From a virus (taxonomy: Duplodnaviria; Heunggongvirae; Uroviricota; Caudoviricetes): a stretch of 19,140 nucleotides of DNA. This document shows positions 698-19,140 of the stretch, piece after piece (positions within the stretch are counted from its first letter, which is position 1; each line of letters opens with the position of its first letter). Position numbers and translations under genes: made by a program. Location of the stretch: IMG/VR virus record IMGVR_UViG_2778261300_000006, positions 1 to 19,140 of that record; one strand, 5' to 3'. The notes under the pieces were generated by a model. That model was not told the DNA's origin and did no database searches. It saw only the letters and a program-made list of their open reading frames with translations.

Positions 698-767
698 TGT
701 GTTCCTAACGAGAACATATAGCAGAAATTATTTGCCATTAAGCAATAAAAAATAAGGTGGATAGCCA

Positions 768-1775: not shown

Positions 1776-1777
1776 TC

Positions 1778-3990: not shown

Positions 3991-4341
3991 ATGAAAAACC
4001 TGAAAAAATTCATTCCCCCTGTTAAAAAACCTCGCCTCAGCGGCTGGCTGCTGACCTCAGTGCTGCTGCTGGGCACCATCGCTCTGGTCTCGCCACAGCA
4101 GTTGCCTGTTGTGATCTACAAGCTGGCACTCATCACGCTGGCAGCAGTGCTGGGTTACTGGCTTGACCGTTCGCTCTTCCCCAAAGCCCGTCCCGGTCAG
4201 TACCTGAAACATGACGACAGACTGATGGCTGAAGGGCGTTTCCCTGTGCAGACCGGCCTTCACCTTGTATTTTCTGCTGCGTTAATCCGCCGTGCACTGA
4301 TTGTTGCAGCGGTCTGTCTGGCTGTGGCAACAGGACTGTGA
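3991..4341 (+). CDS. Holin-like small membrane protein (2-3 predicted TM segments)
   Basis: ATG at 3991 with RBS GAGGAG at 3979..3984. 116 aa with hydrophobic stretches WLLTSVLLLGTIALV, VVIYKLALITLAAVLGYWL and ALIRRALIVAAVCLAVATGL. Stop overlaps the start region of the downstream lysis gene. Confidence 0.5.
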   Translation: MKNLKKFIPPVKKPRLSGWLLTSVLLLGTIALVSPQQLPVVIYKLALITLAAVLGYWLDRSLFPKARPGQYLKHDDRLMAEGRFPVQTGLHLVFSAALIRRALIVAAVCLAVATGL

Positions 4342-4343
4342 CC

Positions 4344-4886
4344 ATGAACTGGCCTCAAATCACCCTCATTATTCTGTTCGCCTTTGGTCTGGGCGTAACC
4401 GCCATCAGGCACGGAGAACCACGTAACGATAAATACAGCTTCTGGTGGCAGCTTGCTGGCAACCTGGTGATTGTCTGGCTGCTCTGGTGTGGCGGCTTCT
4501 TCAGTCAGGCCCGCGCAGCGCAGCCTCCGCAGGCTGCGCTGCAGTATCGCGATGATGTGATCCGTAATGCCCGGCTTGAATGGGGACTGTCTGCGCCGGT
4601 GGCCGATTTCGCCGCGCAACTGCATCAGGAAAGCGGCTGGCGACCTGATGCGGTCTCGCCGGCTGGCGCTCAGGGACTGGCGCAGTTCATGCCTGCCACT
4701 GCCGACTGGATAAGCCAGTTGATACCGATGCTGAGCAGTCGTGAGCCGTTTAATCCTGCATGGGCTATCCGGGCGCTGGTCAGCTATGACCGCTGGCTGT
4801 GGCAGCGCGTAAGCGCCGCCAACGACTGCGAGCGTATGGCCATGACACTGTCGGGCTATAACGGTGGTCTACACCCTGCGCCGTAA
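4344..4886 (+). CDS. Signal-anchored lytic transglycosylase (endolysin-like, SLT domain), apparently truncated or frameshifted
   Basis: N-terminal hydrophobic segment (WPQITLIILFAFGLGVTAI) followed by the family-1 SLT signature ...HQESGWRPDAVSPAGAQGLAQFMPATADWI... and YNGG. The ORF stops right after the YNGG motif; see the 4891..5016 feature. Confidence 0.6.
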   Translation: MNWPQITLIILFAFGLGVTAIRHGEPRNDKYSFWWQLAGNLVIVWLLWCGGFFSQARAAQPPQAALQYRDDVIRNARLEWGLSAPVADFAAQLHQESGWRPDAVSPAGAQGLAQFMPATADWISQLIPMLSSREPFNPAWAIRALVSYDRWLWQRVSAANDCERMAMTLSGYNGGLHPAP

Positions 4887-4890
4887 GGGG

Positions 4891-5016
4891 ATGCCTGTTG
4901 CCGACAAGTACGACGGAGCCGGCGGCAAGGTGAAGTACTGCCGTTATACCGATATCTACAAAGTCGCCGTGGTTGGTGGCGATGCCGGGTATCTCATTAC
5001 CGGTATCAGTAAATAA
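4891..5016 (+). pseudogene. +1-frame continuation of the transglycosylase gene (frameshifted 3' portion or separate 41-aa ORF)
   Basis: The +1 frame reads ...YTLRRKGMPVADKYDGAGGKVKYCRYTDIYKVAVVGGDAGYLITGISK and ends at 5016, exactly where the RBS (AAGGAGG) of the next gene begins. The frame switch would lie near the ggtggt run around 4862..4870. Confidence 0.4.
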
Positions 5017-5025
5017 GGAGGCGTT

Positions 5026-5364
5026 ATGGGAACCACTCAGCAGGTCATTCTGATCACAACCGTAACGGCAGGGGCCGCACTGGCACAGCAGCGTTTTGTC
5101 GGGGCAGATAATACCCCCTGTAAAGCCGGTGCCGCAGCGCTCGGGGTTGCCGAAGTGGATGCTGTTACCGGCGACAGCACGCCGGTGAGCGTTCTGGGCA
5201 TTATTGCTGTCGAGGCCGGGGCCGCTGTCAGCCGTGGTGTGGCTGTTCAGTCAGATGCTCAGGCCAGAGCCGTGCCGCAGTCCGGCGACGGTAAATCCTG
5301 TGGTATTGCACTTGATGAAGCCGGGGGTGAAGGCGACGTCATTCGTATCCTGCGCGGGGTGTGA
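5026..5364 (+). CDS. Ala/Gly-rich small structural protein (possibly Mu gp35-like, DUF2190-type)
   Basis: ATG at 5026 with perfect RBS AAGGAGG. 112 aa. Its position immediately upstream of a DUF1320-like gene matches Mu late-operon order. The family call is from memory and weak. Confidence 0.45.
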   Translation: MGTTQQVILITTVTAGAALAQQRFVGADNTPCKAGAAALGVAEVDAVTGDSTPVSVLGIIAVEAGAAVSRGVAVQSDAQARAVPQSGDGKSCGIALDEAGGEGDVIRILRGV

Positions 5365-5365
5365 C

Positions 5366-5812
5366 ATGTACTGCACCCTGGAGGATTTGCTTGCGCAGGT
5401 GCCGGAACGAACGCTGATCGAGCTCACCAGTGAAGAGATGGACTTCGACTCGCCTGCAACAGTGAATACCCGTGTGGTGGACAGCTGTATCCGCTATGCC
5501 GACGAGCTGATTGATGCCCATCTGCGCGGACGCTATATCCTGCCACTGGCAGAGATACCGACTGTTCTGCGGGACATTGCCATCACGCTGGTCCGTTACC
5601 GGCTCTACGCCCGCCGCCCGGAAGGTGACCTCCCGGATACGGTGAAGGATGACCACAAAGAAGCGCTGCGGCAACTCAGGGAGTTACGTGATAACAGGCT
5701 CACGCTGGGGCTGCCGTCCACTCAGAAAGATGTGCCTGAGCCTGGCGAGTTTCGTGTACGCAGCCGCCCGGCCACTTTCGGCGGTCGTGACGGTTTACTG
5801 GAGAAATACTGA
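5366..5812 (+). CDS. Mu gp36-like protein (DUF1320 family; head-tail joining or tail completion)
   Basis: MYCTLEDLL...RYILPLAEIPTVLRDIAITLVRYRLYARRP...HKEALRQLRELRDNRLTLGL matches the recalled DUF1320 pattern (RY.LPL...P.VL..A.D.A.YRLY.RR...YK.A...L..I..G...LG). Start is 2 nt after the upstream stop. Confidence 0.65.
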   Translation: MYCTLEDLLAQVPERTLIELTSEEMDFDSPATVNTRVVDSCIRYADELIDAHLRGRYILPLAEIPTVLRDIAITLVRYRLYARRPEGDLPDTVKDDHKEALRQLRELRDNRLTLGLPSTQKDVPEPGEFRVRSRPATFGGRDGLLEKY

Positions 5813-6276
5813 TGAACGTTCTGCCCGTCCTTGATGCGGTACTGGCCCGGTTACGCGAGAAGCTGCCGCAACTGCAGGTGGAGTACTTCCCGGAGAAACC
5901 GGCTGAATATCGCCTGAACCATCCGGTTGGCGCGTTGCTGCTGAGCTATGCCGGTTCGCGCTTTGACAGGCCGGATGATACCGGTGCGGTGATCCAGTCT
6001 CAGACTATCCAGCTCTGCGTCACGGTGGTCTTCCGCCAGCTCAACGGTAAAAAAGGGGCGATTAATGTCCTGGATGCTGTCCGCCGCATTCTCGGCGGCC
6101 ACACCCCGCCCGGCTGCCGCCGCCGTATCTGGCTGACCCGCGAGGTGTTTATCGGTGAAGTCAGGGGGCTGTGGCAATACGCCCTCGACTTCGCGACTGA
6201 AAGCGTCTTTATCGAAGACAGCGATTTACCGTCCGGCCCGCTGTTAACCGAAGTGAACTATGAGGAAAGCGAGTGA
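5812..6276 (+). CDS. Mu gp37-like virion morphogenesis / tail completion protein (tentative)
   Basis: ATG overlaps the upstream stop (TGATG) and GGAG lies 8 nt upstream. 154 aa. Assignment is by position between the gp36-like gene and the sheath gene in Mu-like order. Confidence 0.45.
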   Translation: MNVLPVLDAVLARLREKLPQLQVEYFPEKPAEYRLNHPVGALLLSYAGSRFDRPDDTGAVIQSQTIQLCVTVVFRQLNGKKGAINVLDAVRRILGGHTPPGCRRRIWLTREVFIGEVRGLWQYALDFATESVFIEDSDLPSGPLLTEVNYEESE

Positions 6277-6527
6277 TGAAAGAATACCGCTATTCCGGCC
6301 CGGCCAGCGGCGTCACGCTGTCGGACGGAACCGAAATCCTGCTCTGGCCGGGGAAGACGGTTTCCCTGCCGGAGGAGCATGAATACGTGAAGGTACTGGT
6401 GGCGCTGAAGCATCTGACGCCGGTACCAGAAGATACTAAACCCGCCGTCACACCGGCTGTGCAGTCACCAAAGCGCAGAAGCAGCAGTGACAGCGAAGTG
6501 AAAACGGAGGACTCCCATGGCAGCTAA
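6276..6527 (+). CDS. Small protein with a disordered, charged C-terminus (Mu gp38-like position)
   Basis: ATG at 6276 overlaps the upstream TGA. 83 aa. The 3' end overlaps the sheath gene start by 11 nt. Confidence 0.4.
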   Translation: MKEYRYSGPASGVTLSDGTEILLWPGKTVSLPEEHEYVKVLVALKHLTPVPEDTKPAVTPAVQSPKRRSSSDSEVKTEDSHGS

Positions 6528-7944
6528 CTATCTGCATGGCGTCGAAACCATTGAGGTGGAAAACGGAGCCCGCCCGGTTAAAACGGTGAAATCTGCCGTT
6601 ATTGGCCTGATTGGTACCGCCCCGATGGGGGATGTCAATACGCTGGTACAGTGCCTGTCTGAGAAAGACGCTGCGGCATTTGGCAGCCAGTTCACCGGCT
6701 TTACCATTCCGCAGGCGCTGGATGCGATTTATGACCATGGTGCAGGCACCGTTCTGGTCATTAACGTACTCGATCCGTCTGTGCATAAAACCGCTGTGGT
6801 CAGTGAGAATGTGTCGTTCGACAAGGCGACAGGCAGAGCCCGGCTGGCTAATCCGGTGGTCGCGCAGCTGGTACTGAAACCGGACAGCGACGGTCAGCCT
6901 TATGTTGAAGGTCAGGACTACTCGCTTGATGCACAGACCGGGGTGATTACTAACCTGGGTAAAAGCATTGCTGCAGATGCAACGGTGAAGGCCAGCTATA
7001 ACTATGCTGATCCGACCAAAGTCACCCCGGCTGATATCATCGGTACCGTTAACGCTGCAGGCAACCGTACCGGCATGAAGCTGCTTAACGACAGTTTTAA
7101 CCTGTTTGGCTACTTCGCCAAAATCCTGATTGCTCCGGTATTCTGCACCCAGAACAGCGTCTCGGTTGAGCTTATCGCCATGGCTGAGAAACTGGGAGCA
7201 GTAACCTATATTGATGCGCCGGTTGGTACCACTTTTGCGCAGGCTCTGGCGGGACGTGGCCCGGAAGGCACCATTAACTTTAATACCAGCTCTGACCGTG
7301 TCCGCCTGTGCTACCCGCATGTGAAGGTATATGACCCGGTGACGAACACGGAGCGTCTGGAGCCACTGAGCCAGCGTGCGGCGGGCCTGCGTGCCAAAGT
7401 CGACCTGGACAAAGGGTACTGGTGGTCATCCTCCAATCAGGAAATTCTGGGGATCACCGGCGTGGAGCGCCAGCTGTCGGCAATGATTGACGATCCGCAG
7501 AGCGAGGTGAACCTGCTTAACGAACAGGGGATCACCACGGTATTCAGCAGTTACGGCAGCGGCCTTCGTCTGTGGGGTAACCGGACGGCAGCATGGCCAA
7601 CGGTCACCCATATGCGTAACTTTGAGAACGTTCGCCGCACCGGTGATGTGATCAACGAGTCCATTCGTTACTTCAGCCAGCAGTACATCGACATGCCGAT
7701 TACTCAGGCGCTGATTGATGCACTGACGGAGTCGGTCAACGCCTACGGTCGCAAAATGACTGGTGATGGTGCGGTACTGGGCTTCCGTTGCTGGTTTGAT
7801 CCGGCCCGCAATCCGGAGACGGAGCTGGCCGCCGGGCACCTGTTGCTGAGCTACAAATATACGCCACCACCGCCGCTGGAGCGACTGACGTTTGAGACTG
7901 AAATCACCTCGGAATACCTGTTAACCCTGAAAGGGGGCAACTGA
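6517..7944 (+). CDS. Contractile tail sheath protein
   Basis: 475 aa with RBS GGAGG 6 nt upstream. Size and position are right for a myovirus sheath, and it is followed immediately by a tube-sized gene. Sequence is reminiscent of Mu L / P2 FI-type sheath proteins. Confidence 0.85.
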   Translation: MAANYLHGVETIEVENGARPVKTVKSAVIGLIGTAPMGDVNTLVQCLSEKDAAAFGSQFTGFTIPQALDAIYDHGAGTVLVINVLDPSVHKTAVVSENVSFDKATGRARLANPVVAQLVLKPDSDGQPYVEGQDYSLDAQTGVITNLGKSIAADATVKASYNYADPTKVTPADIIGTVNAAGNRTGMKLLNDSFNLFGYFAKILIAPVFCTQNSVSVELIAMAEKLGAVTYIDAPVGTTFAQALAGRGPEGTINFNTSSDRVRLCYPHVKVYDPVTNTERLEPLSQRAAGLRAKVDLDKGYWWSSSNQEILGITGVERQLSAMIDDPQSEVNLLNEQGITTVFSSYGSGLRLWGNRTAAWPTVTHMRNFENVRRTGDVINESIRYFSQQYIDMPITQALIDALTESVNAYGRKMTGDGAVLGFRCWFDPARNPETELAAGHLLLSYKYTPPPPLERLTFETEITSEYLLTLKGGN

Positions 7945-8465
7945 TGTCAAAGATTGAGATAAACCGAATCACGAATGCCAACATCTATCTGGATGGTACT
8001 AACCTGCTGGGACGGGCTGAGGAAGTTAAACTCCCCGATGTCTCCATGATTATGCAGGAGCACAAGGCACTGGGGATGGTGGGTAAGGTGGAACTCCCGG
8101 CTGGTTTTGACAAACTGGAAGGCGAAATCAAATGGAACAGCTTTTACCGCGATGCGATGTTGTCTGCCGCGAACCCGTACAAGTCGCTGGCGCTGCAGTG
8201 TCGCTCCAGCGTCCAGCGCTACAGCTCGCAGGGGCTGATCGACGAAATCCCGCTGGTCACCTTCCTGACAATTATGTTCAAGAAGAACCCGCTGGGGACG
8301 TTCAAACAGCACGAGAACGCCGAGTTCTCCAGTAGCTTCACCTGCACGTATATCAGACAGGTACTGGATGGTGAAGAGTTGCTGCAACTGGACTATCTGG
8401 CCAACATCTTCCGCGTCGGTGGCGTTGATCAACTGACTGACTATCGAATCAATATCGGGGGCTGA
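7944..8465 (+). CDS. Tail tube protein
   Basis: 173 aa. ATG overlaps the sheath stop (TGATG) and RBS AAGGGGG lies upstream. Canonical position after the sheath. Confidence 0.8.
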   Translation: MSKIEINRITNANIYLDGTNLLGRAEEVKLPDVSMIMQEHKALGMVGKVELPAGFDKLEGEIKWNSFYRDAMLSAANPYKSLALQCRSSVQRYSSQGLIDEIPLVTFLTIMFKKNPLGTFKQHENAEFSSSFTCTYIRQVLDGEELLQLDYLANIFRVGGVDQLTDYRINIGG

Positions 8466-8467
8466 CG

Positions 8468-8749
8468 GTGAGTGTTGAACTGACTGACAAAGGAGGGCGA
8501 TGTGCGTCACTGGGCATGTCAAATGGTACGTGGTTTACCCTCCTTGATATTCCGGGGGTGGAGACCCTCTTTAATACCCGTAAAACCAATGACCCGATTG
8601 ACTGCACACGTTCAAAGGCCCGCAAACTGGCCGATTTGATTGAAGCATGGGAGCCGCCCGACCAGTGGTTCTCCGGCACCGGCAACTCTGAGGGAAAGGC
8701 GCTTCTCATCGCTTTCCTGCGTAACTGCAAGGGTTTTCGCACTTGCTGA
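8468..8749 (+). CDS. Hypothetical small protein between tube and chaperone genes
   Basis: 93-aa ORF with GTG start at 8468 (alternative in-frame ATG at 8516). No recognisable family. Followed directly by a terminator-like hairpin. Confidence 0.3.
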   Translation: MSVELTDKGGRCASLGMSNGTWFTLLDIPGVETLFNTRKTNDPIDCTRSKARKLADLIEAWEPPDQWFSGTGNSEGKALLIAFLRNCKGFRTC

Positions 8750-8756
8750 CATCACA

Positions 8757-8778
8757 GGGGCTCCGGCCCCTTCTTTTT
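8757..8778 (+). terminator. Rho-independent terminator-like hairpin inside the tail operon
   Basis: GGGGC-tccg-GCCCC stem-loop (8757..8770) followed by TTCTTTTT (8771..8778). Confidence 0.45.
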
Positions 8779-8846
8779 AATCCCCTTTAATATCCGTCAC
8801 GTCCACCGCCAGACATACTGCTCTGAATTTACAAAGGAGTATGATC

Positions 8847-9182
8847 ATGTCACAGACCCAGTCCGATACTTTTACGCTGTCTTATCCTTTCACCACTGCT
8901 GCAGGTACCAGAATTGAACAGATTGAACTGAAACGCCTGACAGTAAAAGACCTGAAGCAGGTGCGCAAAATCAACAAAGACCCGACAGACTGGGACGAAC
9001 CACTGATTGCCCGTAGCACCGGTATCCTCCCGGAAGACCTCGATAACATGGATCTTGCCGACTATATGGAGCTGCAGAAACGATTTCAGAAAATCACTGG
9101 GCTGGGCAAGAGCGACAAAAACACTGATGCAGGTGCAGGGCCTGCTGGCGAGATGGTTCAGGTTTCAACCGGGGGAGATTGA
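8847..9182 (+). CDS. Tail assembly chaperone (P2 gpE / lambda gpG-type), upstream frame
   Basis: ATG at 8847 with AAGGAG 7 nt upstream (the 8841 ATG is too close to the RBS). Small acidic protein directly upstream of the tape measure gene, with an overlapping out-of-frame ORF, the hallmark of the conserved chaperone frameshift pair. Confidence 0.65.
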   Translation: MSQTQSDTFTLSYPFTTAAGTRIEQIELKRLTVKDLKQVRKINKDPTDWDEPLIARSTGILPEDLDNMDLADYMELQKRFQKITGLGKSDKNTDAGAGPAGEMVQVSTGGD

Positions 9183-9264
9183 TGCCCTCGATACTGACGA
9201 TCTGGAGATGTGGCTGGAGCAGGCTGAAGAGCAAATCAAAAGCGAGTTCGGCGACAATCAGTAA
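9007..9264 (+). CDS. Frameshift extension of the tail assembly chaperone (E'-like C-terminal extension)
   Basis: ORF in the +1 frame relative to 8847..9182, overlapping its 3' end. It encodes an acidic helical tail (...IDALDTDDLEMWLEQAEEQIKSEFGDNQ). It has no plausible independent start (TTG in the track). Only the 3' part (roughly 9170..9264) would be translated after the shift. Confidence 0.45.
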   Translation: MPVAPVSSRKTSITWILPTIWSCRNDFRKSLGWARATKTLMQVQGLLARWFRFQPGEIDALDTDDLEMWLEQAEEQIKSEFGDNQ

Positions 9265-9357
9265 CAACGTATCACTTAACAGCCGCCAGTCGCGGCTGTT
9301 CTGCATGGGTTTCAGACACTTCCCTTCCGTTTTTTTTGCTTTCAGAGGATAGCCACC

Positions 9358-11823
9358 GTGGCCAGTGAATTTTCAGTCGGCGTCATTATTGGCGGCATTG
9401 TCGGGAGCAGCTTCCGCTCAGCCGTCAGTGGCACCCGACGCGCCCTTGATTCCCTTGGTGATACCTCCCGCCGTCTGCAGGAACGCCAGAATGCCTTAAC
9501 CCGGGCAACAGAACGTTATGGTCAACTGGGTTCTTCCCGGATGCAGCATCTCAACAGCGAGTTGCTGCGGGTAAGCCGCACCATGGAGCAAATTGAACGT
9601 CAGCAGCGCCGTCTGTCAGCAGTATCAGCCACCGGTGATGCGTTGAAGGCTAACCGCCTGGCGCTCTATGGTCAGGGTGCAGAAACCTATGCTATTGGCA
9701 GAACGCTGGGCGCACCGGTCATGGCCTCGGTTAAACAATATGCCTCGTTTGAATCACAGTTGCGGGATATCAGTGTCACAGGAGACCTGGATGCAAAACA
9801 GGAACGTGCAATTGGCCAGGCTATCAGACAGGCCTCGCTGAAGGTTAACCAACTGCAGGAGTCTCTGTTAGGGGGAGTCGGACAATTAGTTGCTGATGGT
9901 ATGGCCCCCGAACGGGCAGCAACGTTTGCAGAGATGCTTGGAAAGACCGCTACAGCAACCAAAGCCGATATGACCGACCTTGCCAAAATGACTTATGCCT
10001 TCAGCGATGCACTCAGAATCACTGATGCGAAAGAACTTGAACAGGCGTTTGGTATTGCGGCAACAGGAGCCAAACTTGGGTCATTTGAGCTGAAGGATAT
10101 GGCAAAAGCATTACCCGGTATGGCTAAAGCCTTCGCTGCTCGTGGTATTTATGGAAAAGATGCGATTACCCAGATTGTTGCCAGTCTGGAGGTCGGTAAA
10201 GGTAGTGGCTCTGCAGAGGAAGCGGTCACCAATATGTCCAACTGGCTGGCAGCAATGGGCCGCGGAGATACCATCCAGAAATATGCTAAAGCCGGGGTGG
10301 ATTACCAGGGGTCAATGCAGAATTACGTCGCTCAGGGTTTTTCGCAGTACGAAGCTTCACTGATGATTGCCAACCGTTTTATCGACAGTAAAGGCAAAGC
10401 GTTCTTGCAGCAATGGAAAGCTGCAGGAGCAAGAGGCGATCAGGAAGGTCAGCAGAAACTCATGGAGTCATTTGGTCTGGCTGAGGTCTTTACCGATATT
10501 CAGACTGTCAACCATTTACTGTCAATGCGACAGGGCTGGGATAAATACCTTTCCAGTAAGCAGGAAATGAATACTCCGGCTGCAATGTCTACCCTGGATA
10601 AGGATGCTGCAAAGCAGAATGATACGCTTGAAGGTCGCTGGCGCAGAATGCAGATCGGCTTTAATGATTCTGCTATCAGCATCGGGCAATCCTTGCGTCC
10701 GGCTTTGCTCCAGTTGGGTGAAACATTTATTCCTTTAATGGACAGTGTTGGCAAATGGATAGCGGCAAATCCGCAGCTCGTCAGCAGCACCATAAAGGTT
10801 GTGGGCGCATTACTCGCTTTCAGGATGGCCACTATCGGTCTCAAGCTTGGGCTGAATCTCCTTCTTTCCCCCTTTGTAAGCGTCTGGAAAAATGCTGTTT
10901 TACTTCGGGCCAACTGGCTTCGTCTGACGCTCGCACTGGGGGAAGGCGGTAAACTCCGCTGGCTGGTGACAGGCTTTGGTGCTGTCGCCAGAGGAGCCAG
11001 AACACTGGGTGGTGTGCTCTCAGGGGGGCTGGTTCGCGGAATTATGAGCGCCGGGCGTGCCGTTCTCTGGATTGGCCGGGCGCTGCTGATGAATCCCATC
11101 GGTCTCGTTATCACCGCCGTCGCGGCAGCAGCTTACCTTATCTACCGCAACTGGGGCGCAGTCAGTAGCTGGTTTAAACAGCGCTGGGCTGACATTCAGG
11201 AAGCCTTTAACGGCGGCATCGTGGGAATTGGTAAACTGCTGGTTAACTGGTCTCCGGCTGGTCTGCTTTATAAAGCCTTTGCGGCTGCGCTGAAATATCT
11301 CGGCGTTGATCTGCCGGCGAAATTCACCGACTTCGGTGGTCATCTTATTGACGGGTTGATAAATGGCATCAGAAACAAATGGGCGTCACTCAAAACCAGC
11401 GTAACCGGAATGGGTGACAGCATCAGTGACTGGTTCAGCGAAAAGCTGGGCATCCATTCACCGAGTCGCGTGTTTATGGGCTTTGGTGACAATATCGCGC
11501 AGGGTGCCGCCATTGGCCTGCAACGGACCACTCCGCTTGCTGCACTGGCCGGGCAGCGCCTGGCCGCTGAAATGACACCGGATGTTCCCCGTATCCCGTC
11601 GCCGGAAATCATGGCTGCCGGATATTCAGGCCGTGGCGCAACTGCAACCGGCGGTGGAGCGTCTGGCGGTATCCAGGTCAGCTTTAATCCTCAGTTTTTC
11701 CTCAATGGTAAGGAAACCGCAGCGCCTGCCGGGCTGGCTGGTGCCCTGAATATGAGCCTGCATGAGCTGGAAAAAATGCTGGAGCGTCTGCTGGCTCAGA
11801 AACAACGTAAGGAGTACAGCTGA
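9358..11823 (+). CDS. Tail tape measure protein
   Basis: 821 aa. GTG start with AGAGGA 8 nt upstream. Long helical N-terminal region, Gly/Ala-rich hydrophobic central segments and overall architecture typical of tape measure proteins. Confidence 0.85.
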   Translation: MASEFSVGVIIGGIVGSSFRSAVSGTRRALDSLGDTSRRLQERQNALTRATERYGQLGSSRMQHLNSELLRVSRTMEQIERQQRRLSAVSATGDALKANRLALYGQGAETYAIGRTLGAPVMASVKQYASFESQLRDISVTGDLDAKQERAIGQAIRQASLKVNQLQESLLGGVGQLVADGMAPERAATFAEMLGKTATATKADMTDLAKMTYAFSDALRITDAKELEQAFGIAATGAKLGSFELKDMAKALPGMAKAFAARGIYGKDAITQIVASLEVGKGSGSAEEAVTNMSNWLAAMGRGDTIQKYAKAGVDYQGSMQNYVAQGFSQYEASLMIANRFIDSKGKAFLQQWKAAGARGDQEGQQKLMESFGLAEVFTDIQTVNHLLSMRQGWDKYLSSKQEMNTPAAMSTLDKDAAKQNDTLEGRWRRMQIGFNDSAISIGQSLRPALLQLGETFIPLMDSVGKWIAANPQLVSSTIKVVGALLAFRMATIGLKLGLNLLLSPFVSVWKNAVLLRANWLRLTLALGEGGKLRWLVTGFGAVARGARTLGGVLSGGLVRGIMSAGRAVLWIGRALLMNPIGLVITAVAAAAYLIYRNWGAVSSWFKQRWADIQEAFNGGIVGIGKLLVNWSPAGLLYKAFAAALKYLGVDLPAKFTDFGGHLIDGLINGIRNKWASLKTSVTGMGDSISDWFSEKLGIHSPSRVFMGFGDNIAQGAAIGLQRTTPLAALAGQRLAAEMTPDVPRIPSPEIMAAGYSGRGATATGGGASGGIQVSFNPQFFLNGKETAAPAGLAGALNMSLHELEKMLERLLAQKQRKEYS

Positions 11824-12707
11824 TGTTTGCCGTACTGGGTGATATTGAGTTTGAACTGATTACCTACTGGGACGGCTTCGAGGCCACGTTTGGCGTCGAT
11901 TATGCGGAGCATGCCCGCATCGAGGGTAAACCCGGCCTGCAGTTTGTCGGCGACAGGCTGGACGAAATCCAGATAAGCCTGGTCTTCCATCAGCATTATT
12001 GTGTGCCCGACGTGGAGCTGGCGAGAGTGCGAACAGCCATGAAGGCCCATCAGGCACTGGCGCTGGTCTTCGGCAACGGTGACTATCGCGGCTGGTTCGT
12101 GATTACCGATGTGACCGCAACCAGCGAGCAGACAGACAGCACCGGTAACGTGCTGGCTGTCAGTGCCACCGTGTCTCTCCGGGAATACACCGGTGACCCG
12201 AAAAATCCTCTGCAACCGCCGGCAATACGCAGGCAGGTTCCCGGTGCCGGAGCTGTATCGGGTGCTGTTCCATCGCCTTCCGGGGTGGCGCAGTTCGTCC
12301 GTAACGGCGTCAACTATGCGAAACAGGCGCAGTCTGTACTCCAGACCACTATCAGTGCCGTTCGGGTGGCGCAGAAAATGAAGGGTAACCCCGTTGTCGC
12401 GCTGACCCGTGTGCCTGGACTGATGAGCGGACTGGGTAATATATCCGGAGCTCTGGGGAAAAGTGTTCCGGCGTTTAATGCACTCTCTGAATCCATGCCC
12501 GATGCCATCAGTCTGGCCAGAACAGCCAGTGAGGCAGCCACGTATGTACAGCAGGCGCAGTCGGCGCTGAGTGGTGTGGACAAAAGAAATATTGCAGGTG
12601 CTCTGGATACCGTTTCCGGGCAGCTTAACGCCGCCGGCACAGCATTCAACCGCATGTCTCCGGGATTAAGTGCAATGGCCGCCAGAATACTGACGAGGAG
12701 TGTGTGA
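11823..12707 (+). CDS. P2 gpU-like tail protein (DNA-circulation-type N-terminal domain)
   Basis: ATG overlaps the tape-measure stop, with AAGGAG 8 nt upstream. N-terminus MFAVLGDIEFELI resembles gpU-family starts. Position is after the tape measure. Confidence 0.55.
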   Translation: MFAVLGDIEFELITYWDGFEATFGVDYAEHARIEGKPGLQFVGDRLDEIQISLVFHQHYCVPDVELARVRTAMKAHQALALVFGNGDYRGWFVITDVTATSEQTDSTGNVLAVSATVSLREYTGDPKNPLQPPAIRRQVPGAGAVSGAVPSPSGVAQFVRNGVNYAKQAQSVLQTTISAVRVAQKMKGNPVVALTRVPGLMSGLGNISGALGKSVPAFNALSESMPDAISLARTASEAATYVQQAQSALSGVDKRNIAGALDTVSGQLNAAGTAFNRMSPGLSAMAARILTRSV

Positions 12708-12919
12708 TGTTTCTTGAACATATTACCCGTGACGGAGAGCGCTGGGATTCGCTGGCATGGCAGTACTACGGTGACCCGCTGGGCTATCCCCGGATTATTG
12801 CAGCCAATCCGCACGTGGCCATTACGCCGGTGCTGCCCTCCGGGGTGTTGTTACTGATCCCGGTTATTGAGGCTGAAGATGCCCGCACAGAAGAGGATGT
12901 TGCTCCATGGCTGAGATAA
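12707..12919 (+). CDS. Tail protein X-like (P2 gpX family)
   Basis: 70 aa. ATG overlaps the upstream stop, with GAGGAG 6 nt upstream. Pattern W..LAWQYYGDPLGY..IIAANP......LP.G..L.IP resembles the gpX / LysM-like family. Confidence 0.6.
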   Translation: MFLEHITRDGERWDSLAWQYYGDPLGYPRIIAANPHVAITPVLPSGVLLLIPVIEAEDARTEEDVAPWLR

Positions 12920-14061
12920 ACAGTACTGCGCAAGACGTATCAGCGTTAACCGGCGTCAGCGATGTGCTGACGCCGGTGTTCACTCTGTGGTATCTGCAGA
13001 AAAATATCACCTCTGATATCGCGCCTTATGTCACCCGTGTGACCTGGAGCGATAACATCAAAAATGAGTCCGATACCATTGAGGTGGAGCTGGATGACAC
13101 CGATGGTCGCTGGCTGGATAAGTGGTATCCGGGCAAGGGTGACACGCTGACGCTGAAAATGGGTTATCAGGGCGAGAAACTGCTGTCCTGCGGTACATTC
13201 TCAATAGACGAGATCGAAGTGAGTTCGCCCGCGTCCGTTGTCGCTATCCGTGGGGTGGCCACCTCGGTTAACAGTGCTCTGCGGACTAAATCCAGCCGTG
13301 GTTTTGAGAACACCACGCTGGCAGCTGTTGCGGGGCGGATTGCCAGAAAGCACCGACTGAAACTGGTGGGCAGCATTGAGTCCATCAAAATCGACCGGGT
13401 GACCCAGTATGCTGAAACCGACGTGGGTTTTCTGCGCCGGCTGGCCAGCGAGTATGGTTATGCAGTGAAAGTGGTCAGTGACCAGTTGATTTTTTCTCAT
13501 CTGGCCACACTGCGCAGTCAGGAGCCGGTCAGGCAGTTAAAACCGCAGGATGTGGCCCGCTTTTCCCTGCGTGACACCATCAACCGGGTCTATAAATCTG
13601 CAAAGGTAAAACACCAGAAAAGCAGCAGTAAAAAACTGATCGTCTACGAAGCTGATGGTGGTACCCGTGAAAGCGACAAAAAGCTCAAAGGTGGTAAGGT
13701 TACCAGCGCTGACTCACTTAAAGTTAACAGCCGTGTCAGCGACCCGGACAGTGCCCGGATTAAAGCGGATTCAGCACTGGCCAGACATAACGAATACCAG
13801 CAGAACGGCTCCCTGACGCTGACGGGAACGCCTCAACTGACAGCAGGCAACAAAATTGAACTGGTGGGCTTTGGACAGTTATCCGGTCCATGGCTGATAA
13901 TCACTGCCCGCCATGCGTTTGAGCGTAACAGCGGCTACACCACAGAGCTGGAAGTGGCACGGGGGCCAGTCACAAGAGGGAAAAAACAAAAAACTCAGAA
14001 ACTCACGGTTTATCACCCGGATGGCAGTACATCGACGGTGATTAAGGAGAAGAAAAAATGA
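12907..14061 (+). CDS. P2 gpD-like / Mu P-like tail protein (baseplate hub-type)
   Basis: 384 aa. Position between the gpX-like and spike genes. Lys-rich C-terminus. 3' end overlaps the next start (ATGA). Confidence 0.65.
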   Translation: MAEINSTAQDVSALTGVSDVLTPVFTLWYLQKNITSDIAPYVTRVTWSDNIKNESDTIEVELDDTDGRWLDKWYPGKGDTLTLKMGYQGEKLLSCGTFSIDEIEVSSPASVVAIRGVATSVNSALRTKSSRGFENTTLAAVAGRIARKHRLKLVGSIESIKIDRVTQYAETDVGFLRRLASEYGYAVKVVSDQLIFSHLATLRSQEPVRQLKPQDVARFSLRDTINRVYKSAKVKHQKSSSKKLIVYEADGGTRESDKKLKGGKVTSADSLKVNSRVSDPDSARIKADSALARHNEYQQNGSLTLTGTPQLTAGNKIELVGFGQLSGPWLIITARHAFERNSGYTTELEVARGPVTRGKKQKTQKLTVYHPDGSTSTVIKEKKK

Positions 14062-14585
14062 CTGGTGTCACCCGTCAGGTCGGTACGGTCAGTGCCGTTG
14101 ATGCCGACAGGGTTCAGGCCCGCGTTCGTCTGCCTGAATGCGATAATCTGCGCACAAACTGGCTTAACGTGCTACAGCGCAATACCCAGGATAACAAGGA
14201 TTACTGGCTCCCTGACGTGGGGGAGCAGGTTGAGGTGCTGCTCGATGCCAACGGCGAGGATGGTGTTATTCTGGGCGCGGTGTACTCAGACGTCGATAAA
14301 CCGCCGTTCAGTGATAAAAACGTCCGGGGTACGAAATACGCTGATGGCGCGGAGTTCAGTTATAACCGCGCGACCCATACGCTGACGGTCAGAGGAGGTA
14401 TTGAGCGTATCGTGGTGGAGGTTGCCGCTGATATCTCTCTCAAAGGGAAAAAACTCGACCTCACGGGAGTTACCACGATCAACGGCCCCGCGACACTCAA
14501 TGGTGATCTGGAAATCAACGGAAGCGCCCATGCAACGGGTAACATATTTGCTGATGGTCAGAACTCTAATCACCATTCCCATTGA
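14058..14585 (+). CDS. Baseplate central spike protein (gpV-like)
   Basis: 175 aa with AAGGAG RBS. gpV-like N-terminal OB-fold region. His-rich C-terminal apex (...GQNSNHHSH). Confidence 0.75.
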   Translation: MTGVTRQVGTVSAVDADRVQARVRLPECDNLRTNWLNVLQRNTQDNKDYWLPDVGEQVEVLLDANGEDGVILGAVYSDVDKPPFSDKNVRGTKYADGAEFSYNRATHTLTVRGGIERIVVEVAADISLKGKKLDLTGVTTINGPATLNGDLEINGSAHATGNIFADGQNSNHHSH

Positions 14586-14641
14586 ACCTTCTTAAACGCC
14601 TTTAATATCGGCGCTTACTTCCCGGGGGCAATACTGCCTCC

Positions 14642-14989
14642 ATGAAAACGACCTCAGTATTCTGGCAACCAGCTCTGCAGGCTCCCGGCGAAATCGTCCG
14701 GGGGCTGGATGATATCCGGCAGTCCATCCAGATCATCCTGCGGACTCCCCGCGGCAGCGACCCGCATCGCCCGGAGTTCGGCAGCAATCTGCACCTTTAT
14801 ATCGACTGGCCTGTCGGCCGGGCCATTCCGCATGTGGTTCGCGAATCCGTCGATGCCATCAGGCGCTGGGAACCCCGCTGCCAGCTTATGTCGGTTAAAC
14901 CCGCCGTCGACGGCGAACATCTTACGCTCCGGGTGAGCTGGAAAGGCTCAGACGGACAACCCCGTACTCAGGAACTGCTATGGCGCTGA
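14642..14989 (+). CDS. Baseplate wedge protein (gpW / gp25-like)
   Basis: 115 aa. Pattern ...IRQSIQIILRTPRGSDPHRPEFGSNLHLYIDWP... is typical of the GPW_gp25 family. 3' end overlaps the J-like start. Confidence 0.75.
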   Translation: MKTTSVFWQPALQAPGEIVRGLDDIRQSIQIILRTPRGSDPHRPEFGSNLHLYIDWPVGRAIPHVVRESVDAIRRWEPRCQLMSVKPAVDGEHLTLRVSWKGSDGQPRTQELLWR

Positions 14990-16083
14990 CAGAACCCGAT
15001 TTTATTGAACGCGATGCCGATAAAATCACGGCAGAAATGATTGCGAAGTATGAAGCGGATACCGGAAAAACGCTGTACCCGGCACAGGCTGAACGTCTGC
15101 TGATTGACCTGTGGGCCTATCGCGAAATGCTGGTCAGGGTGGCAGTACAGGAGGCGGCGAAGCAGAATCTGGTCGCTTTTTCCCGTGAGCCGATGATTGA
15201 TTACCTCGGTGAACTGGTCGGTGTATACCGCCTTGCCGCGCAGCCTGCCACCACCACACTTCAGTTCTCTGTGGATGAGGCACTGGCCATTGATGTGCTG
15301 ATCCCGGCAGGCACCCGCGTCAGCGCTTCCGACAGTATTATTTTTGCCACCGATACAGACGTGGTGCTGAAGGCCGGATTGCTGCTGGTCAATGTCACGG
15401 CCACCTGTACCGAGCCGGGTACCGCTGGCAACGGCTGGCAACCGGCGCAGGTCAGTCAGTTACTCGATGAGATTGATAACATTGACCTGCTGGTGACCAA
15501 TCTGACGGCCAGCTCTGGCGGTTCAGAGCAGGAAGACGATGACCGGCTCCGGGAGCGTATCAGGCTGGCCCCGGAGTCATTCACCAATGCCGGAAGCCGT
15601 GGTGCATACCGTTTTCATGCTATGGGGGCGCATCCCGGCATTGTCGACGTTGCTGTTCTTTCTCCCGCTCCCGGCACTGTCGAGCTGTATCCGCTGCTCA
15701 GCACTGGTCTGCCGGACAGCAGTATCCTCACTCTGGTAGAGAGTTTCTGTTCTGACGAAAAAGTCAGACCACTCACTGATACCGTGCGGGCTAAAACACC
15801 TGTTCAGGTGGATTACACCATTGAAGCCAGGATTACGATCTATCGTGATCAGGATGCAAGGTTGGTAAAGGACAACGCTAACAGCGCCATACAGAACTGG
15901 GTGGCATCCCGTACCGCCACGCTGGGGCGCGATATTGTTCCCAGCCAGATTATCAGCGTGTTGTCCGTTTCCGGGGTGTACCAGGTCGAACTGGTGACAC
16001 CGGCACTGAGGGTGGTGGCAGAAAACGAATGGGCAAACTGTACGGCGATCACTCTTAACATGACCGGGGTGTCCGATGGCTAA
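14980..16083 (+). CDS. Baseplate J-like protein
   Basis: 367 aa with AGGA RBS. Position and size match gpJ / Mu gp47. Translationally coupled to both neighbours. Confidence 0.8.
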   Translation: MALTEPDFIERDADKITAEMIAKYEADTGKTLYPAQAERLLIDLWAYREMLVRVAVQEAAKQNLVAFSREPMIDYLGELVGVYRLAAQPATTTLQFSVDEALAIDVLIPAGTRVSASDSIIFATDTDVVLKAGLLLVNVTATCTEPGTAGNGWQPAQVSQLLDEIDNIDLLVTNLTASSGGSEQEDDDRLRERIRLAPESFTNAGSRGAYRFHAMGAHPGIVDVAVLSPAPGTVELYPLLSTGLPDSSILTLVESFCSDEKVRPLTDTVRAKTPVQVDYTIEARITIYRDQDARLVKDNANSAIQNWVASRTATLGRDIVPSQIISVLSVSGVYQVELVTPALRVVAENEWANCTAITLNMTGVSDG

Positions 16084-16654
16084 GGTGCTACAACTCCCGC
16101 CACCGCTTGAGGGTGATATCAGTCTCAGAACGCTGGGAAGACTGGCCGGACGGCTGGATAACATCGACCTGAGCGTACTGATGGTCGGTCTCGTCGATAT
16201 TGTCGACAGTTCCGCGCTGCCATGGCTTGGCGAGCAGTTCTCGCTGTTCGGCGATGGCTGGGAACTGGCGGAATCGGACGATGTACGCCGCATGCTTATC
16301 AAATCCGCTATCGAGCTACACCGCTATAAAGGAACACCGTGGTCAATCCGGGAAATTATCCGCCGTTTTGGCTTCGGCGAAGTGGATCTGATTGAAGGTA
16401 CGGGGCAGATTGGCTATGACGGCAGACACACGTACAACGGGCTTTTCGTCCATGGTGATGCACAAGCCTGGGCAGTCTATCGCGTCATCTTTCAACAACC
16501 CATCACTAACGATCAGGCGGCGCTGTTACGTCAGACGCTTGCTGCCTTTGCTCCGGCTCGCTGTCATCTGGCAAGTCTGGAATATCAGTCTGTCGCCATT
16601 CGATACAACAGTACTACCTGTTATGACGGTAGTTACAACCACGGGAGCAGTTAA
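16076..16654 (+). CDS. Baseplate/tail protein (P2 gpI-like, Mu gp48-like)
   Basis: 192 aa. ATG overlaps the J stop. Immediately upstream of the tail fiber gene. Confidence 0.7.
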   Translation: MAKVLQLPPPLEGDISLRTLGRLAGRLDNIDLSVLMVGLVDIVDSSALPWLGEQFSLFGDGWELAESDDVRRMLIKSAIELHRYKGTPWSIREIIRRFGFGEVDLIEGTGQIGYDGRHTYNGLFVHGDAQAWAVYRVIFQQPITNDQAALLRQTLAAFAPARCHLASLEYQSVAIRYNSTTCYDGSYNHGSS

Positions 16655-16656
16655 TT

Positions 16657-17622
16657 ATGGCAAATCTACCCGAAACCCCGCAGTGGGAAAGCGGCATCTA
16701 CCAGATTGAGGTCTCTGACCCCGTTCTGGGCGGACCTGACGGAATTTCTAACCGCCAGGCTAAACAACTGGCCAGCCGAACGTCATACCTCAAACAGAAG
16801 GTCGAAAAAAGCGGAACAGACCTGGCTGCACATATCGCGGCAGTTGACCCGCATACCCAGTACGCGACGAAAGCCAGTCCGACATTCACCGGCACACCAA
16901 CAGCACCTACACCTGCAAATGGTGATAACAGCAAAAAGCTGGCGACGACGGAGTTTGTGGCCAAAGCACTTGCGGCACTTGCAGGCAGCGCCCCTGAGAC
17001 ACTGGATACGCTTAAAGAGCTGGCTGACGCTCTCGGTAATGATCCAAACTTTGCGACTACGGTACTGAACAAGCTGGCGGAAAAGCTGGCTAAAGACCAG
17101 AACGGCGCAGATATTCCTGAGCCTGCGCTGTTTGTCAAAAACCTTGGTTTGGGGGAAGGCTCTGCACTGCCCGTTGGTGTGCCTGTTCCGTGGCCCTCAG
17201 CCACACCGCCAGCAGGGTGGCTGAAATGTAACGGAGCAGCATTTTCTTCTGAAATGTACCCCAAACTGGCAAAGGCTTACCCCGCGAATAAATTACCGGA
17301 TTTACGGGGTGAGTTTATTCGTGGCTGGGATGACGGGCGCGGGATTGATCCTGGTCGCCAGTTGCTTGGGTGGCAGAAAGGTACTTTGGTTGGTGGTAGA
17401 GATGACAATGATGCCGCAGTTGATATTTCATATATGAGTAACGGAAATAGTATTGATTACGGTGGCGATAAAACATTTTCAACGAATTACCGGAGTGATT
17501 ATTTATGGTATGCAATTCTGGGTAACGTCACTGGTCGTGCCAAAGCTGCTTTAAGTGGGTCCTTTTTTAATGTAACTCGTCCACGCAACATCGCCTTTAA
17601 CTACATTGTGAGAGCAGCATAG
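16657..17622 (+). CDS. Tail fiber protein: constant N-terminal part fused to variable C-terminal cassette 1 (tail-collar domain)
   Basis: 321 aa. The constant region contains the conserved fiber segment SPTFTGTPTAPTPANGDNSKKLATTEFVAKALAALAGSAPETLDTLKELADALGNDPNFATT (P2 gpH-like). The variable part begins at about 17146 with the tail-collar-type motif GWLKCNGAAFSSEMYPKLAKAYP...LPDLRGEF and ends ...RPRNIAFNYIVRAA. Confidence 0.8.
   Translation: MANLPETPQWESGIYQIEVSDPVLGGPDGISNRQAKQLASRTSYLKQKVEKSGTDLAAHIAAVDPHTQYATKASPTFTGTPTAPTPANGDNSKKLATTEFVAKALAALAGSAPETLDTLKELADALGNDPNFATTVLNKLAEKLAKDQNGADIPEPALFVKNLGLGEGSALPVGVPVPWPSATPPAGWLKCNGAAFSSEMYPKLAKAYPANKLPDLRGEFIRGWDDGRGIDPGRQLLGWQKGTLVGGRDDNDAAVDISYMSNGNSIDYGGDKTFSTNYRSDYLWYAILGNVTGRAKAALSGSFFNVTRPRNIAFNYIVRAA
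17132..17157. other. Putative Gin/Hin/Cin-type recombination crossover site A, at the constant/variable junction of the fiber gene
   Basis: ttgtcaaaaacc-tt-ggtttgggggaa: a 12+2+12 bp arrangement whose left half matches the recalled hix/gix half-site (TTCTTGAAAACC / TTCCTGTAAACC) at 9 of 12 positions. Homology with the downstream repeat copy starts exactly at the central dinucleotide. Confidence 0.5.
17144..17345 (+). repeat. Repeat copy A (5' conserved part of variable fiber cassette 1)
   Basis: About 200 bp nearly identical to 17628..17829 (direct) and to the reverse complement of 19035..19140 (inverted; truncated by the window end). Confidence 0.85.
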
Positions 17623-17641
17623 AAACGTTGGTTTGGGGGAA
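17616..17641. other. Putative crossover site B (direct orientation relative to site A)
   Basis: agcatagaaacg-tt-ggtttgggggaa: right half identical to site A, left half diverged and overlapping the stop codon of cassette 1. Confidence 0.4.
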
Positions 17642-17829
17642 GGCTCTGCACTGCCCGTTGGTGTGCCCGTTCCGTGGCCCTTAGCAACACCACCAACGGG
17701 CTGGCTGAAATGTAACGGTGCAGCATTTTCTTCTGAAATGTACCCCAAACTGGCAAAAGCCTACCCCGCGAATAAATTACCGGATTTACGCGGAGAATTT
17801 ATCCGTGGCTGGGATGATGGGCGAGGAAT
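17628..17829 (+). repeat. Repeat copy B (5' conserved part of silent cassette 2)
   Basis: Direct repeat of 17144..17345 with a few substitutions; the two copies diverge after ...GRGID. Confidence 0.85.
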
Positions 17830-18109
17830 TGATGCGGCACGCGCTTTATTGAGCATTCAAAACGGGATGTTGGAAAAACACCGCCATATTGTTGTAGCTA
17901 ACGATGGATATGACACAAAAGATGAATGGGAGTTGGCTACGATTTTCAAAAAAACATATACACAAGGCAGGGGGCTTGATGCCACAAATACAGGAGGGAG
18001 TTTGACTCCATCACCAACGCTTCATTCACGAGGAAGTATTGGTAACACAGGTGGTAGTGAAACCCGCCCCCGCAATATTGCATTTAACTATATCGTGAGG
18101 GCGGCTTAG
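17630..18109 (+). CDS. Silent alternative tail-fiber C-terminal cassette 2 (no own start codon)
   Basis: Open frame encoding GEGSALPVGVPVPWP...GWLKCNGAAFSSEMYPKLAKAYPANKLPDLRGEFIRGWDDGRGID, then a unique middle, then the conserved end ...RPRNIAFNYIVRAA. There is no ATG or RBS (the track start is TTG at 17633), so it would need to be joined to the constant region to be expressed. Confidence 0.55.
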   Translation, partial: GLGEGSALPVGVPVPWPLATPPTGWLKCNGAAFSSEMYPKLAKAYPANKLPDLRGEFIRGWDDGRGIDAARALLSIQNGMLEKHRHIVVANDGYDTKDEWELATIFKKTYTQGRGLDATNTGGSLTPSPTLHSRGSIGNTGGSETRPRNIAFNYIVRAA

Positions 18110-18115
18110 TTATAT

Positions 18116-18733
18116 TCAACTGGCTGCTGCCAGAGGCATTTCCGGCCAGTTGATATCCGGTGCAGTGCTGATGTCAGTCGCATTAAGCACATCTATGAAA
18201 TCAAGCACGGCGTTTAGTTTTTCCGTCTCCTGGGGCGTCAATCGGCGTCCGGCTCGTAGTTTGAGATTTATAAGCTCAACAGATGCCATTGCCTGTTCCT
18301 CAAGTTGCTGACGATGCGCTCCGGCAGCTTCCAGTTCTGCTGCGTGCTGTCGTCCCGCATCTGTCACCCAGGTCTCACCATCCCAGACATCATAGATAGT
18401 AGCTGGCTGTTTCACCGTCGTATCAGGAGGGTAATCTCCCGGTTGTGTGATTTGCACAGCGTTACCATTCTCTGTGCTGTAAACCGTTTCGCCTCTGTGG
18501 TCTGGAACATATTTCCAGATGTTCTGGTCGGTATCACGACAGACAGCGAAGCCGGGGCGTTTTTCTGGTGGCGCGTCAATGCATGAGTGAGCCGGAATTC
18601 CAACACCATAAGCGAGATACTCAACAGTGGCAGAGAGATATTCACGGTTTTCAGCATCGTAGTTATAAACGGTAATATCGCCTGCAGTTATAGCGATACC
18701 ATTCTGATCAAGTACTGCAGCAGCATTATTCAT
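18116..18733 (-). CDS. Tail fiber assembly chaperone (Mu U/U'-like)
   Basis: 205 aa. C-terminal ...INWPEMPLAAAS resembles the conserved C-terminus of Mu U / Tfa-type fiber assembly proteins (recall). ATG overlaps the stop of the inverted cassette 3 (TAATG). Confidence 0.75.
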   Translation of the reverse strand: MNNAAAVLDQNGIAITAGDITVYNYDAENREYLSATVEYLAYGVGIPAHSCIDAPPEKRPGFAVCRDTDQNIWKYVPDHRGETVYSTENGNAVQITQPGDYPPDTTVKQPATIYDVWDGETWVTDAGRQHAAELEAAGAHRQQLEEQAMASVELINLKLRAGRRLTPQETEKLNAVLDFIDVLNATDISTAPDINWPEMPLAAAS

Positions 18734-19140
18734 TAAGTAGCCCTTACAATATAGTTAAACGCAATATTACGGGGGCGGTTTTCCGTTCCTGTATTCCCTC
18801 CGTTGGCACCTAATCTATAAACACCACGAGTGCCAATAGCACGTAGTGAAGATGGAACTTTTACACCTGACTCATCTGTTTTAACAATCCCGCCATCACC
18901 GTATGTAGCCAGTATACCAGGGTTTGTTCCTGCACGGGTGCTATTTGCGGCAAGCCCTTCACCAGTCCATAACTCCATATAGTGAATATGATCTATAACC
19001 GAATGTGATTGTGCATTAAGCAAGGAACGCCCTGAATCAATTCCCCGCCCGTCATCCCAGCCGCGAATAAACTCACCCCGTAAATCCGGTAATTTATTCG
19101 CGGGGTAGGCTTTTGCCAGTTTGGGGTACATTTCAGAAGA
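18733..19140 (-). CDS. Inverted alternative tail-fiber C-terminal cassette 3 (partial; 5' end beyond window)
   Basis: Minus-strand frame encoding ...SSEMYPKLAKAYPANKLPDLRGEFIRGWDDGRGID-(unique middle)-...NRPRNIAFNYIVRAT. Open to the window edge. Followed by its own chaperone on the same strand. Confidence 0.65.
   Translation of the reverse strand, partial: SSEMYPKLAKAYPANKLPDLRGEFIRGWDDGRGIDSGRSLLNAQSHSVIDHIHYMELWTGEGLAANSTRAGTNPGILATYGDGGIVKTDESGVKVPSSLRAIGTRGVYRLGANGGNTGTENRPRNIAFNYIVRAT
19035..19140 (-). repeat. Repeat copy C (inverted; truncated by window end)
   Basis: The reverse complement matches 17730..17829 and 17246..17345. The inverted crossover site itself would lie about 85 bp beyond the window. 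Confidence 0.8.

Follow-up and report, generated by a model that had tools for sequence, protein, structure and literature searches.

A probable pivot block with a single invertible chaperone gene in a Min-type tail-fibre array of a Mu-like prophage

How is a chaperone supplied to alternative tail-fibre ends when the only chaperone gene of the array is itself invertible? The question is raised by the right end of a 19,140-nucleotide (nt) stretch of tailed-phage (Caudoviricetes) DNA, positions 1 to 19,140 of the IMG/VR record IMGVR_UViG_2778261300_000006, which in its whole length is called the window here. In this region the expressed fibre gene, a constant part (K) fused in frame to cassette 1 (c1), is followed by the silent cassette 2 (c2) in direct orientation, and then by a tail-fibre assembly gene (Tfa), which is coupled to an inverted cassette 3 (c3). 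A preliminary description had pointed out this asymmetric organization, with Tfa as the only U/Tfa-like chaperone of the window, and both points are confirmed here: the coordinates hold, and a single Tfa-like open reading frame (ORF) is present, at 18116-18733. It had further suggested that the folding of cassettes 1 and 2 needs no dedicated chaperone, that more cassettes and chaperones lie beyond the window, or that cassette 2 is a decaying reservoir. The present analysis shows that cassette 2 is a maintained and used cassette, and it indicates that the region is very probably the pivot block of a tail-fibre switch that works by multiple inversions in the manner of Min (p15B), located in a transposable Mu-like prophage with a P2-like tail. 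The combined statement, in which this pivot architecture and the maintained c2 are joined by a Tfa that is generic for a class of cassettes and by Tfa-free assembly of the fibres made by the isomers with antisense Tfa, is also judged likely. The question with real content is that of chaperone supply versus a single invertible Tfa gene.

The comparison of the region covered 160 related loci, drawn from viral contigs and from other genomes. Prophages in complete Escherichia coli genomes are 98-99.7% identical to the window, and their right flank carries one to four more inverted cassettes and a serine invertase (Resolvase plus HTH_7) of 190 amino acids (aa). In all complete relatives, locus L175 among them, this invertase immediately follows the array, and host DNA comes next. 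L175 is collinear with the window across 8.5 kb at 98.9% identity, and this collinearity places the third crossover site, site C, at the window equivalent of 19228-19253, about 88 nt past the end of the window and not within it. The expectation that the array continues beyond the window is thus borne out as far as cassettes are concerned, but it does not hold for chaperones in the relatives, and a second chaperone just outside the window, for which nothing speaks but the truncated end of the window, is a very remote prospect. In the window's prophage family the 205-aa Tfa is present once per array and never twice, and a single pivot Tfa is present in 24 of 25 arrays, the exception (L182) having a different pivot and two different Tfa genes (T200 and T147).

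Near-identical prophages differ solely in the order and orientation of the cassettes that they share (Table 1). The window's cassette 1 is present in strain A31 in an inverted and silent form, while a look-up of the exact K-c1 protein of the window returned ten further arrays. This protein recurs unchanged in at least 10 arrays of differing permutation, and behind it the same six cassettes occur in at least eight permutations. Besides the K-c1 fusion of the window, in-frame fusions of K to c2, c153, c177, c155, and c143 exist among the relatives, the last four being further cassette types of 153, 177, 155, and 143 aa. These comparisons indicate that inversion does take place in this prophage family, direct evidence at the level of sequencing reads being confined to the related prophages of E. 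coli EC958. A synthetic K-c3-Tfa junction gave no contiguous match in complete E. coli genomes (about 20 carriers), a result that is not meaningful because only 10% of the isomers are expected to express c3 and the genomes are non-independent. A protein search with the variable part of c3 returned only ORFs of up to about 167 aa, but the c2 control likewise missed the known K-c2 fusions, and the search, being blind to fused forms, was discarded.

The crossover sites account for the limited set of orders. The pattern search for the crossover core TTCCCCCAAACCAA[CG]GTTT gives two occurrences, 17139-17157 and 17623-17641, against a chance expectation of 0.01. Both cores have the same orientation, which agrees with the earlier statement that site B is direct relative to site A. 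The full sites are 26 bp long, with conserved half-sites and an asymmetric central dinucleotide, and match the form and consensus of the 26-bp invertase sites tabulated for the prophages of E. coli EC958 (PMC4134206, Table 3). The cassette-side half-site GGTTTGGGGGAA is found at the start of every cassette. In site B, the outer half is supplied by the 3' end of cassette 1 (its last codons with the stop codon), and the outer half of the internal sites, AGCATAGAAACG, is likewise made up of the last codons of the preceding simple cassette, its stop codon, and five further bases. The conserved ...VRAA* end of a cassette doubles in this way as a recombinase half-site, both at site B and at every internal site in the relatives. 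Cassettes 2 and 3 have no 3' half-site because they face each other across Tfa, and the block [c2> <Tfa <c3] (where > denotes forward and < inverted orientation) therefore has cassette-side half-sites at both ends. The repeats in this region coincide with the shared 5' parts of the cassettes: the copies of a 220-nt direct repeat are 90% identical, and the inverted repeats, with their other copy at 19018-19140, are 105-123 nt long and 90-93% identical.

A single order rule holds for all 25 mapped related arrays that have three or more sites, namely K, forward cassettes, one pivot [c2> <Tfa <c3], inverted cassettes, and invertase, and the pivot block c2> <T <c3 is unsplit in every one of them. 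There are more than two sites in such arrays: the window has two direct ones and an implied inverted one, and the relatives have 4-7. In the mechanism that we propose, the serine invertase encoded just right of the window would recombine the 26-bp sites only if they are mutually inverted. A simple cassette would carry the cassette-side half-site at its 5' end and would supply, with its own last codons and stop, the outer half of the next site, while the pivot, with cassette-side half-sites at both ends, would force the order of all isomers. When recombination is restricted to inverted sites, this half-site geometry implies that every reachable isomer follows the forward-pivot-inverted order. 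Cassette 2 would then be two inversions away and always convergent with Tfa, and c3 would always have Tfa behind it.

These properties are reproduced by an explicit model, a breadth-first enumeration with four simple cassettes, the pivot, and six sites, in which only inverted sites recombine. The six sites give 240 isomers, which equals the number reportedly described for p15B Min by Sandmeier, Iida, and Arber in 1990-1992, together with six sites and six ORFs. From the state of the window, c3 or any inverted cassette is one inversion away and c2 is two, in agreement with the earlier claim that cassette 2 is reached by A x C followed by A x B. Expression of c2 always goes with an antisense Tfa and expression of c3 always with a sense Tfa, and the claim that no co-oriented chaperone ever follows cassette 2 is reproduced as well. 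For each simple cassette Tfa is sense in half of the isomers, and c3 is expressed in 10% of all isomers. The pivot geometry therefore makes the chaperone asymmetry structural. What the preliminary description had not recognized is that a p15B-Min-type array is defined by just this asymmetric geometry.

Table 1. Features of the array in the window and arrays of related prophages (K, constant fibre part; c, cassette; >, forward; <, inverted).
Feature	Position	Strand	Description
Expressed fibre gene, K fused in frame to cassette 1	16657-17622	+	ORF, 321 aa; Pfam Collar at aa 174-221
Crossover site A	17132-17157	+	TTGTCAAAAACC TT GGTTTGGGGGAA; inside fibre ORF; left half fixed to constant part
Shared 5' collar-coding repeat, copy 1	17139-17358	+	
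Crossover site B	17616-17641	+	AGCATAGAAACG TT GGTTTGGGGGAA; direct relative to site A
Shared 5' collar-coding repeat, copy 2	17623-17842		
Cassette 2	17633-18109	+	ORF, 158 aa; Pfam Collar; HRH motif; silent in present configuration
Tfa (tail-fibre assembly protein)	18116-18733	-	ORF, 205 aa; Caudo_TAP PF02413 at aa 80-200, E=1e-25
Cassette 3, 3' three quarters only	18733-19140, past window end	-	Collar cassette; HIH motif; 167 aa in relatives
Shared 5' collar-coding repeat, inverted copy	19018-19140		
Array of strain A31			K-cX, c2>, <Tfa, <c3, <c1, <c143, invertase
Array of strain 2014C-3075			K-c2, <Tfa, <c3, invertase
Arrays of strains 12089, JB2, M-17, KY180			Four to six cassettes, other orders
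Array of L175			K-c1, c2>, <Tfa, <c3, <c177, <c143, <c153, invertase

The maintenance of cassette 2 is seen both in its fusions and in its alleles. In-frame fusions of c2 to the constant part are found in L002, L168, and the truncated L085, L170 probably having one too, and the fused cassettes 2 of strain 2014C-3075 and of L168 are 100% identical to that of the window. The ratio of non-synonymous to synonymous substitution rates (dN/dS) is 0.08-0.10 over 16 alleles, contrary to the relaxed selection that had been considered, and the corresponding ratio for polymorphisms (pN/pS) among Tfa-less contexts is 0.08. In the pivot arm opposite Tfa all 22 instances are intact, and the 10 alleles found there differ by 54 synonymous versus 15 non-synonymous changes (omega of about 0.09). 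The idea of a decaying reservoir is ruled out by the intact copies, this omega value, and the in-frame fusions elsewhere. The variable parts are not tied to one position in the arrays. A c3-type variable region (L165, L186, and L187) ends with ...IVRAA and a site when it is a simple cassette and with ...IVRAD when it is a pivot arm, and the variable parts evidently change slots through homologous recombination within the flanks that are conserved.

Since Tfa is without exception linked to cassette 3 in the window's prophage family, both physically and by translational coupling, it might be thought of as a chaperone for cassette 3 alone, with the other cassettes being intrinsically self-folding. 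We consider such a dedicated chaperone highly improbable in view of what is found in other phages, where c2, the 177-, 155-, 153-, and 143-aa types, and a 193-aa relative of the 196-aa type each have their own Tfa of about 200 aa behind them, while P1-like arrays contain the c3 type both among their simple, Tfa-less cassettes and as a Tfa-less pivot arm. The N-terminal domain of Tfa, moreover, does not covary with the variable tip, the identity of its 75 N-terminal residues and that of the variable parts of the cassettes having a Spearman correlation of 0.02 over 2080 pairs. It tracks instead the class of the conserved end of the cassette, in 70 of 70 collar-ended cases and 36 of 39 others. 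In Mu, North et al. reportedly assigned fibre binding to this domain in 2019. As the N-domain follows the end class and not the variable tip, Tfa looks like a class-generic chaperone, one that would recognize the conserved collar and the C-terminal part of the cassette, which resemble the tip of T4 gp37. A fibre-binding function is documented for the N-terminal domain of Mu Tfa (PMC7291167). The earlier reading, in which no dedicated chaperone is needed for the folding of cassettes 1 and 2, may stand in a reworded form, because Tfa is not dedicated to c3 either.

Half of the isomers, among them the state of the window and every K-c2 state, have Tfa antisense to the late operon, and fibres made during this state would assemble without Tfa or with general chaperones. 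We tentatively put forward fibre assembly without cis-expressed Tfa, to which we give somewhat less than an even chance; it is favored by the recurrence of single-Tfa pivots, which are seen in several lineages, together with a Tfa-less pivot and the strong purifying selection on c2. A literature search found no explicit discussion of single-Tfa arrays. As to other loci, a scan of viral contigs with Tfa gave 6 loci only, and a 1098-bp contig of Dryocola clanedunensis (L068:1-1098) contains two convergent collar cassettes 82 bp apart, with crossover sites at the borders and no Tfa between them.

Two other explanations have to be weighed against Tfa-free assembly. The isomers with antisense Tfa might be unproductive, in that all collar cassettes would need Tfa, made only in the c3>Tfa> orientation of the pivot, so that half of the isomers and all K-c2 states would yield fibreless or inactive particles and c2 would be kept intact only via recombination with copies sited near an available Tfa. 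The movement of variable parts between slots agrees with this scenario, as does the fact that the cassettes are homologues of the T4 gp37 tip, gp37 being known to need gp38, and in about 40 of some 50 two-site loci each cassette has retained a Tfa of its own, in the Mu-like arrangement K> c> T> <T <c, which is the commonest pattern. It is nevertheless unlikely, because the 10 alleles in the Tfa-less pivot arm have an omega of 0.09 with 22 of 22 copies intact, single-Tfa pivots recur across lineages and one pivot has no Tfa at all, and the two-cassette switch of L002 would be a mere on/off switch with a useless yet perfectly conserved cassette. The remaining explanation is that Tfa is supplied anyway, either by a leftward promoter at the invertase end that reads the inverted cassettes and Tfa, in which case two convergent promoters would always cover the pivot, or in trans by the Tfa of other prophages. 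A scan of the - strand of the array and of the 60-nt spacer between site and invertase found no sigma-70-like promoter for Tfa, which speaks for unproductive isomers and against the promoter version of supply; it is a weak negative, as phage late promoters fall outside such a scan. Terminator-like sites within the array were not found in the promoter/terminator scan either. Supply in one form or the other would fit the generic class of Tfa, the many homologous Tfa/cassette loci in E. coli (up to 16 matching places per genome), the ability of lambda Tfa to substitute for T4 gp38, and the Shine-Dalgarno-like AAGGG of Tfa itself. High late expression of Tfa genes from cryptic prophages is, however, not expected, and we regard supply by either route as rather doubtful, at best no more probable than the unproductive isomers.

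Several points also weigh against Tfa-free assembly and the broader interpretation. Most of the two-cassette relatives keep a Tfa for each cassette, even when both cassettes are of the collar type (L088, L091, and L153); T4 gp37 requires gp38, and Mu U and P2 G are required for fibre assembly. The purifying selection on c2 could in part be imported by recombination from Tfa-containing contexts. The invertase and site C, both outside the window, are placed there on the strength of the relatives.

A further idea, which we rate as a long shot, is that the chaperone supply is itself phase-variable, with the orientation of the pivot toggling Tfa independently of the simple cassette that is expressed. 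Mu Tfa is said by North et al. (in 2019) to form a stable complex with the fibre tip. Lambda Tfa assists the assembly of Stf trimers and is a component of the virion (PMC7291167). If the idea is true and Tfa stays on the fibre as in lambda and Mu, each simple cassette would occur in a capped and an uncapped form, giving up to 2n+2 adsorption phenotypes, that is, 10 instead of 6 for the six-cassette L175.

The fibre gene belongs to a P2-like tail module, which in the window includes the sheath (6517-7944), the tape measure (9358-11823), and homologues of GpU, X, D, V, W, J, and I besides the 321-aa fibre gene. The constant part of the fibre ends at about 17143. The C-terminal half of the fibre aligns to the T4 gp37 tip (PDB 2XGF, phmmer E=6e-15), including the terminal NIAFNYIVR strand, and both features of a gp37-tip-like domain, the collar and the C-terminal strand that returns to it, are present. 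In the needle of a gp37-like tip, HxH repeats bind metal; in the window, a single HxH is found in c2 and another in c3, and none in c1, and this distribution (17860-18050 and 18800-19000 versus 17300-17560) perhaps reflects two structural sub-types of the gp37-like tip. Tfa and cassette 2 are convergent, with 6 nt between their stop codons. The stop codon of cassette 3 overlaps the start of Tfa in TAATG, the AAGGG motif lies 7 nt upstream of Tfa, and Tfa is translationally coupled to cassette 3. The L175 orthologue of Tfa contains Caudo_TAP_N (PF28596) in addition to Caudo_TAP, and a PDB sequence search with Tfa gave zero matches.

The prophages of this family are inserted into a different truncated host gene in each strain (next to yccA, hyc, ygjJ, otsA, fepE, and others; loci L001-L004 and L172-L184), and they combine a DUF935 (Mu gp29-like) portal with a P2-like tail. 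The varied insertion points, this portal, and the P2-like tail together suggest a transposable, Mu-like phage whose tail module is of the P2 type. Strain JB2 (NZ_CP182203.1) carries two such prophages, one at about 674 kb and the other at about 1.80 Mb, and both have an array of their own. In L183 (6001-12966) the array reads K>c1>c143>c153>c177>c3>Tfa>, followed by cassette 2, and no invertase stands at its end; c2 instead continues in frame the constant part of another tail module, which is convergent and of the Mu gp45-48 type (256-aa ORF, 9562-10332, - strand). This arrangement looks like the product of an inversion between crossover sites of two different prophages, with both fibre genes complete on one array. 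Degenerate arrays are seen in MS20655 (L003:4651-5276), the closest relative of the window in the upstream part (99.7%), in which a deletion has shortened Tfa to 165 aa and connected it with a piece of a cassette, and in L176 (8374-8715), which retains a 113-aa remnant.

The analysis bears on annotation and on engineering. Short ORFs annotated as "phage tail protein", like the antisense Tfa genes, found in thousands of E. coli genomes and in P1-like phage-plasmids are parts of one shuffling array, and such ORFs are neither pseudogenes nor separate genes. For the engineering of host range, the data indicate that collar-type tips and Tfa are modular, one Tfa class accompanying many unrelated tips.

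Among known systems, the closest are p15B Min and the IncY P1-like plasmids, the invertase of the IncY plasmids being 96% identical to that of the window's family. The invertase of one IncY P1-like plasmid is in turn reported to be 98.5% identical to p15B Min (PMC6906374). The array of the window and those of the IncY plasmids share the 26-bp sites, the collar-type cassettes, including the c1, c2, and c3 types, and a single-Tfa pivot. Three P1-like plasmids carry a long P1-type fibre, five to seven simple cassettes with the c1, c2, and c3 types among them, and one pivot, the single Tfa of which is 59% identical to that of the window. They differ from the window in that their array is built on a P1-type fibre of about 800 aa, whereas that of the window is built on the short 160-aa K of a P2-like baseplate fibre in a chromosomal Mu-like prophage, and in that their Tfa is linked to a 152-aa type and not to the c3 type. 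In one IncY plasmid a truncated second invertase fragment (61% identity, aa 1-59) lies beside the min-like gene (L165:3150-3326), and we take it to be reminiscent of the pseudo-win remnant of p15B. In an IncY P1-like phage-plasmid of Salmonella Typhi, an ISEcp1-blaCTX-M-15 unit sits inside the tail-fibre cassette array (L185:5494-8266).

The G segment of Mu (Gin), the C segment of P1 (Cin), and the P segment of e14 (Pin) are switched by serine invertases of the same family, the invertase of the window's family being 83% identical to e14-like Pin. They likewise have a site within the fibre ORF, an in-frame swap of its 3' end, and a convergent invertible block of two cassettes. However, they have two sites, two cassettes, and a Tfa for each, while the window type has extra simple cassettes and one Tfa. 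In the prophages of E. coli EC958, inversions at near-identical 26-bp sites in collar-type fibre genes have been seen directly in PacBio reads (PMC4134206). With T4 gp37/gp38 and lambda Stf/Tfa, the window shares cassettes that align to the collar and the NIAFNYIVR strand of 2XGF and a Tfa of the Caudo_TAP family; compared with T4 gp37, its cassettes, with about 90 variable residues, are far shorter, and HxH, single in c2 and in c3, is missing from cassette 1. The shufflon of R64 (Rci) is similar in that the inversion of several cassettes gives alternative C-termini of one adhesin-like protein, but it uses a tyrosine recombinase, acts on a pilus adhesin, and has no chaperone gene. In this company, the array of the window is an ordinary new addition to the known Min-type multiple-inversion family.

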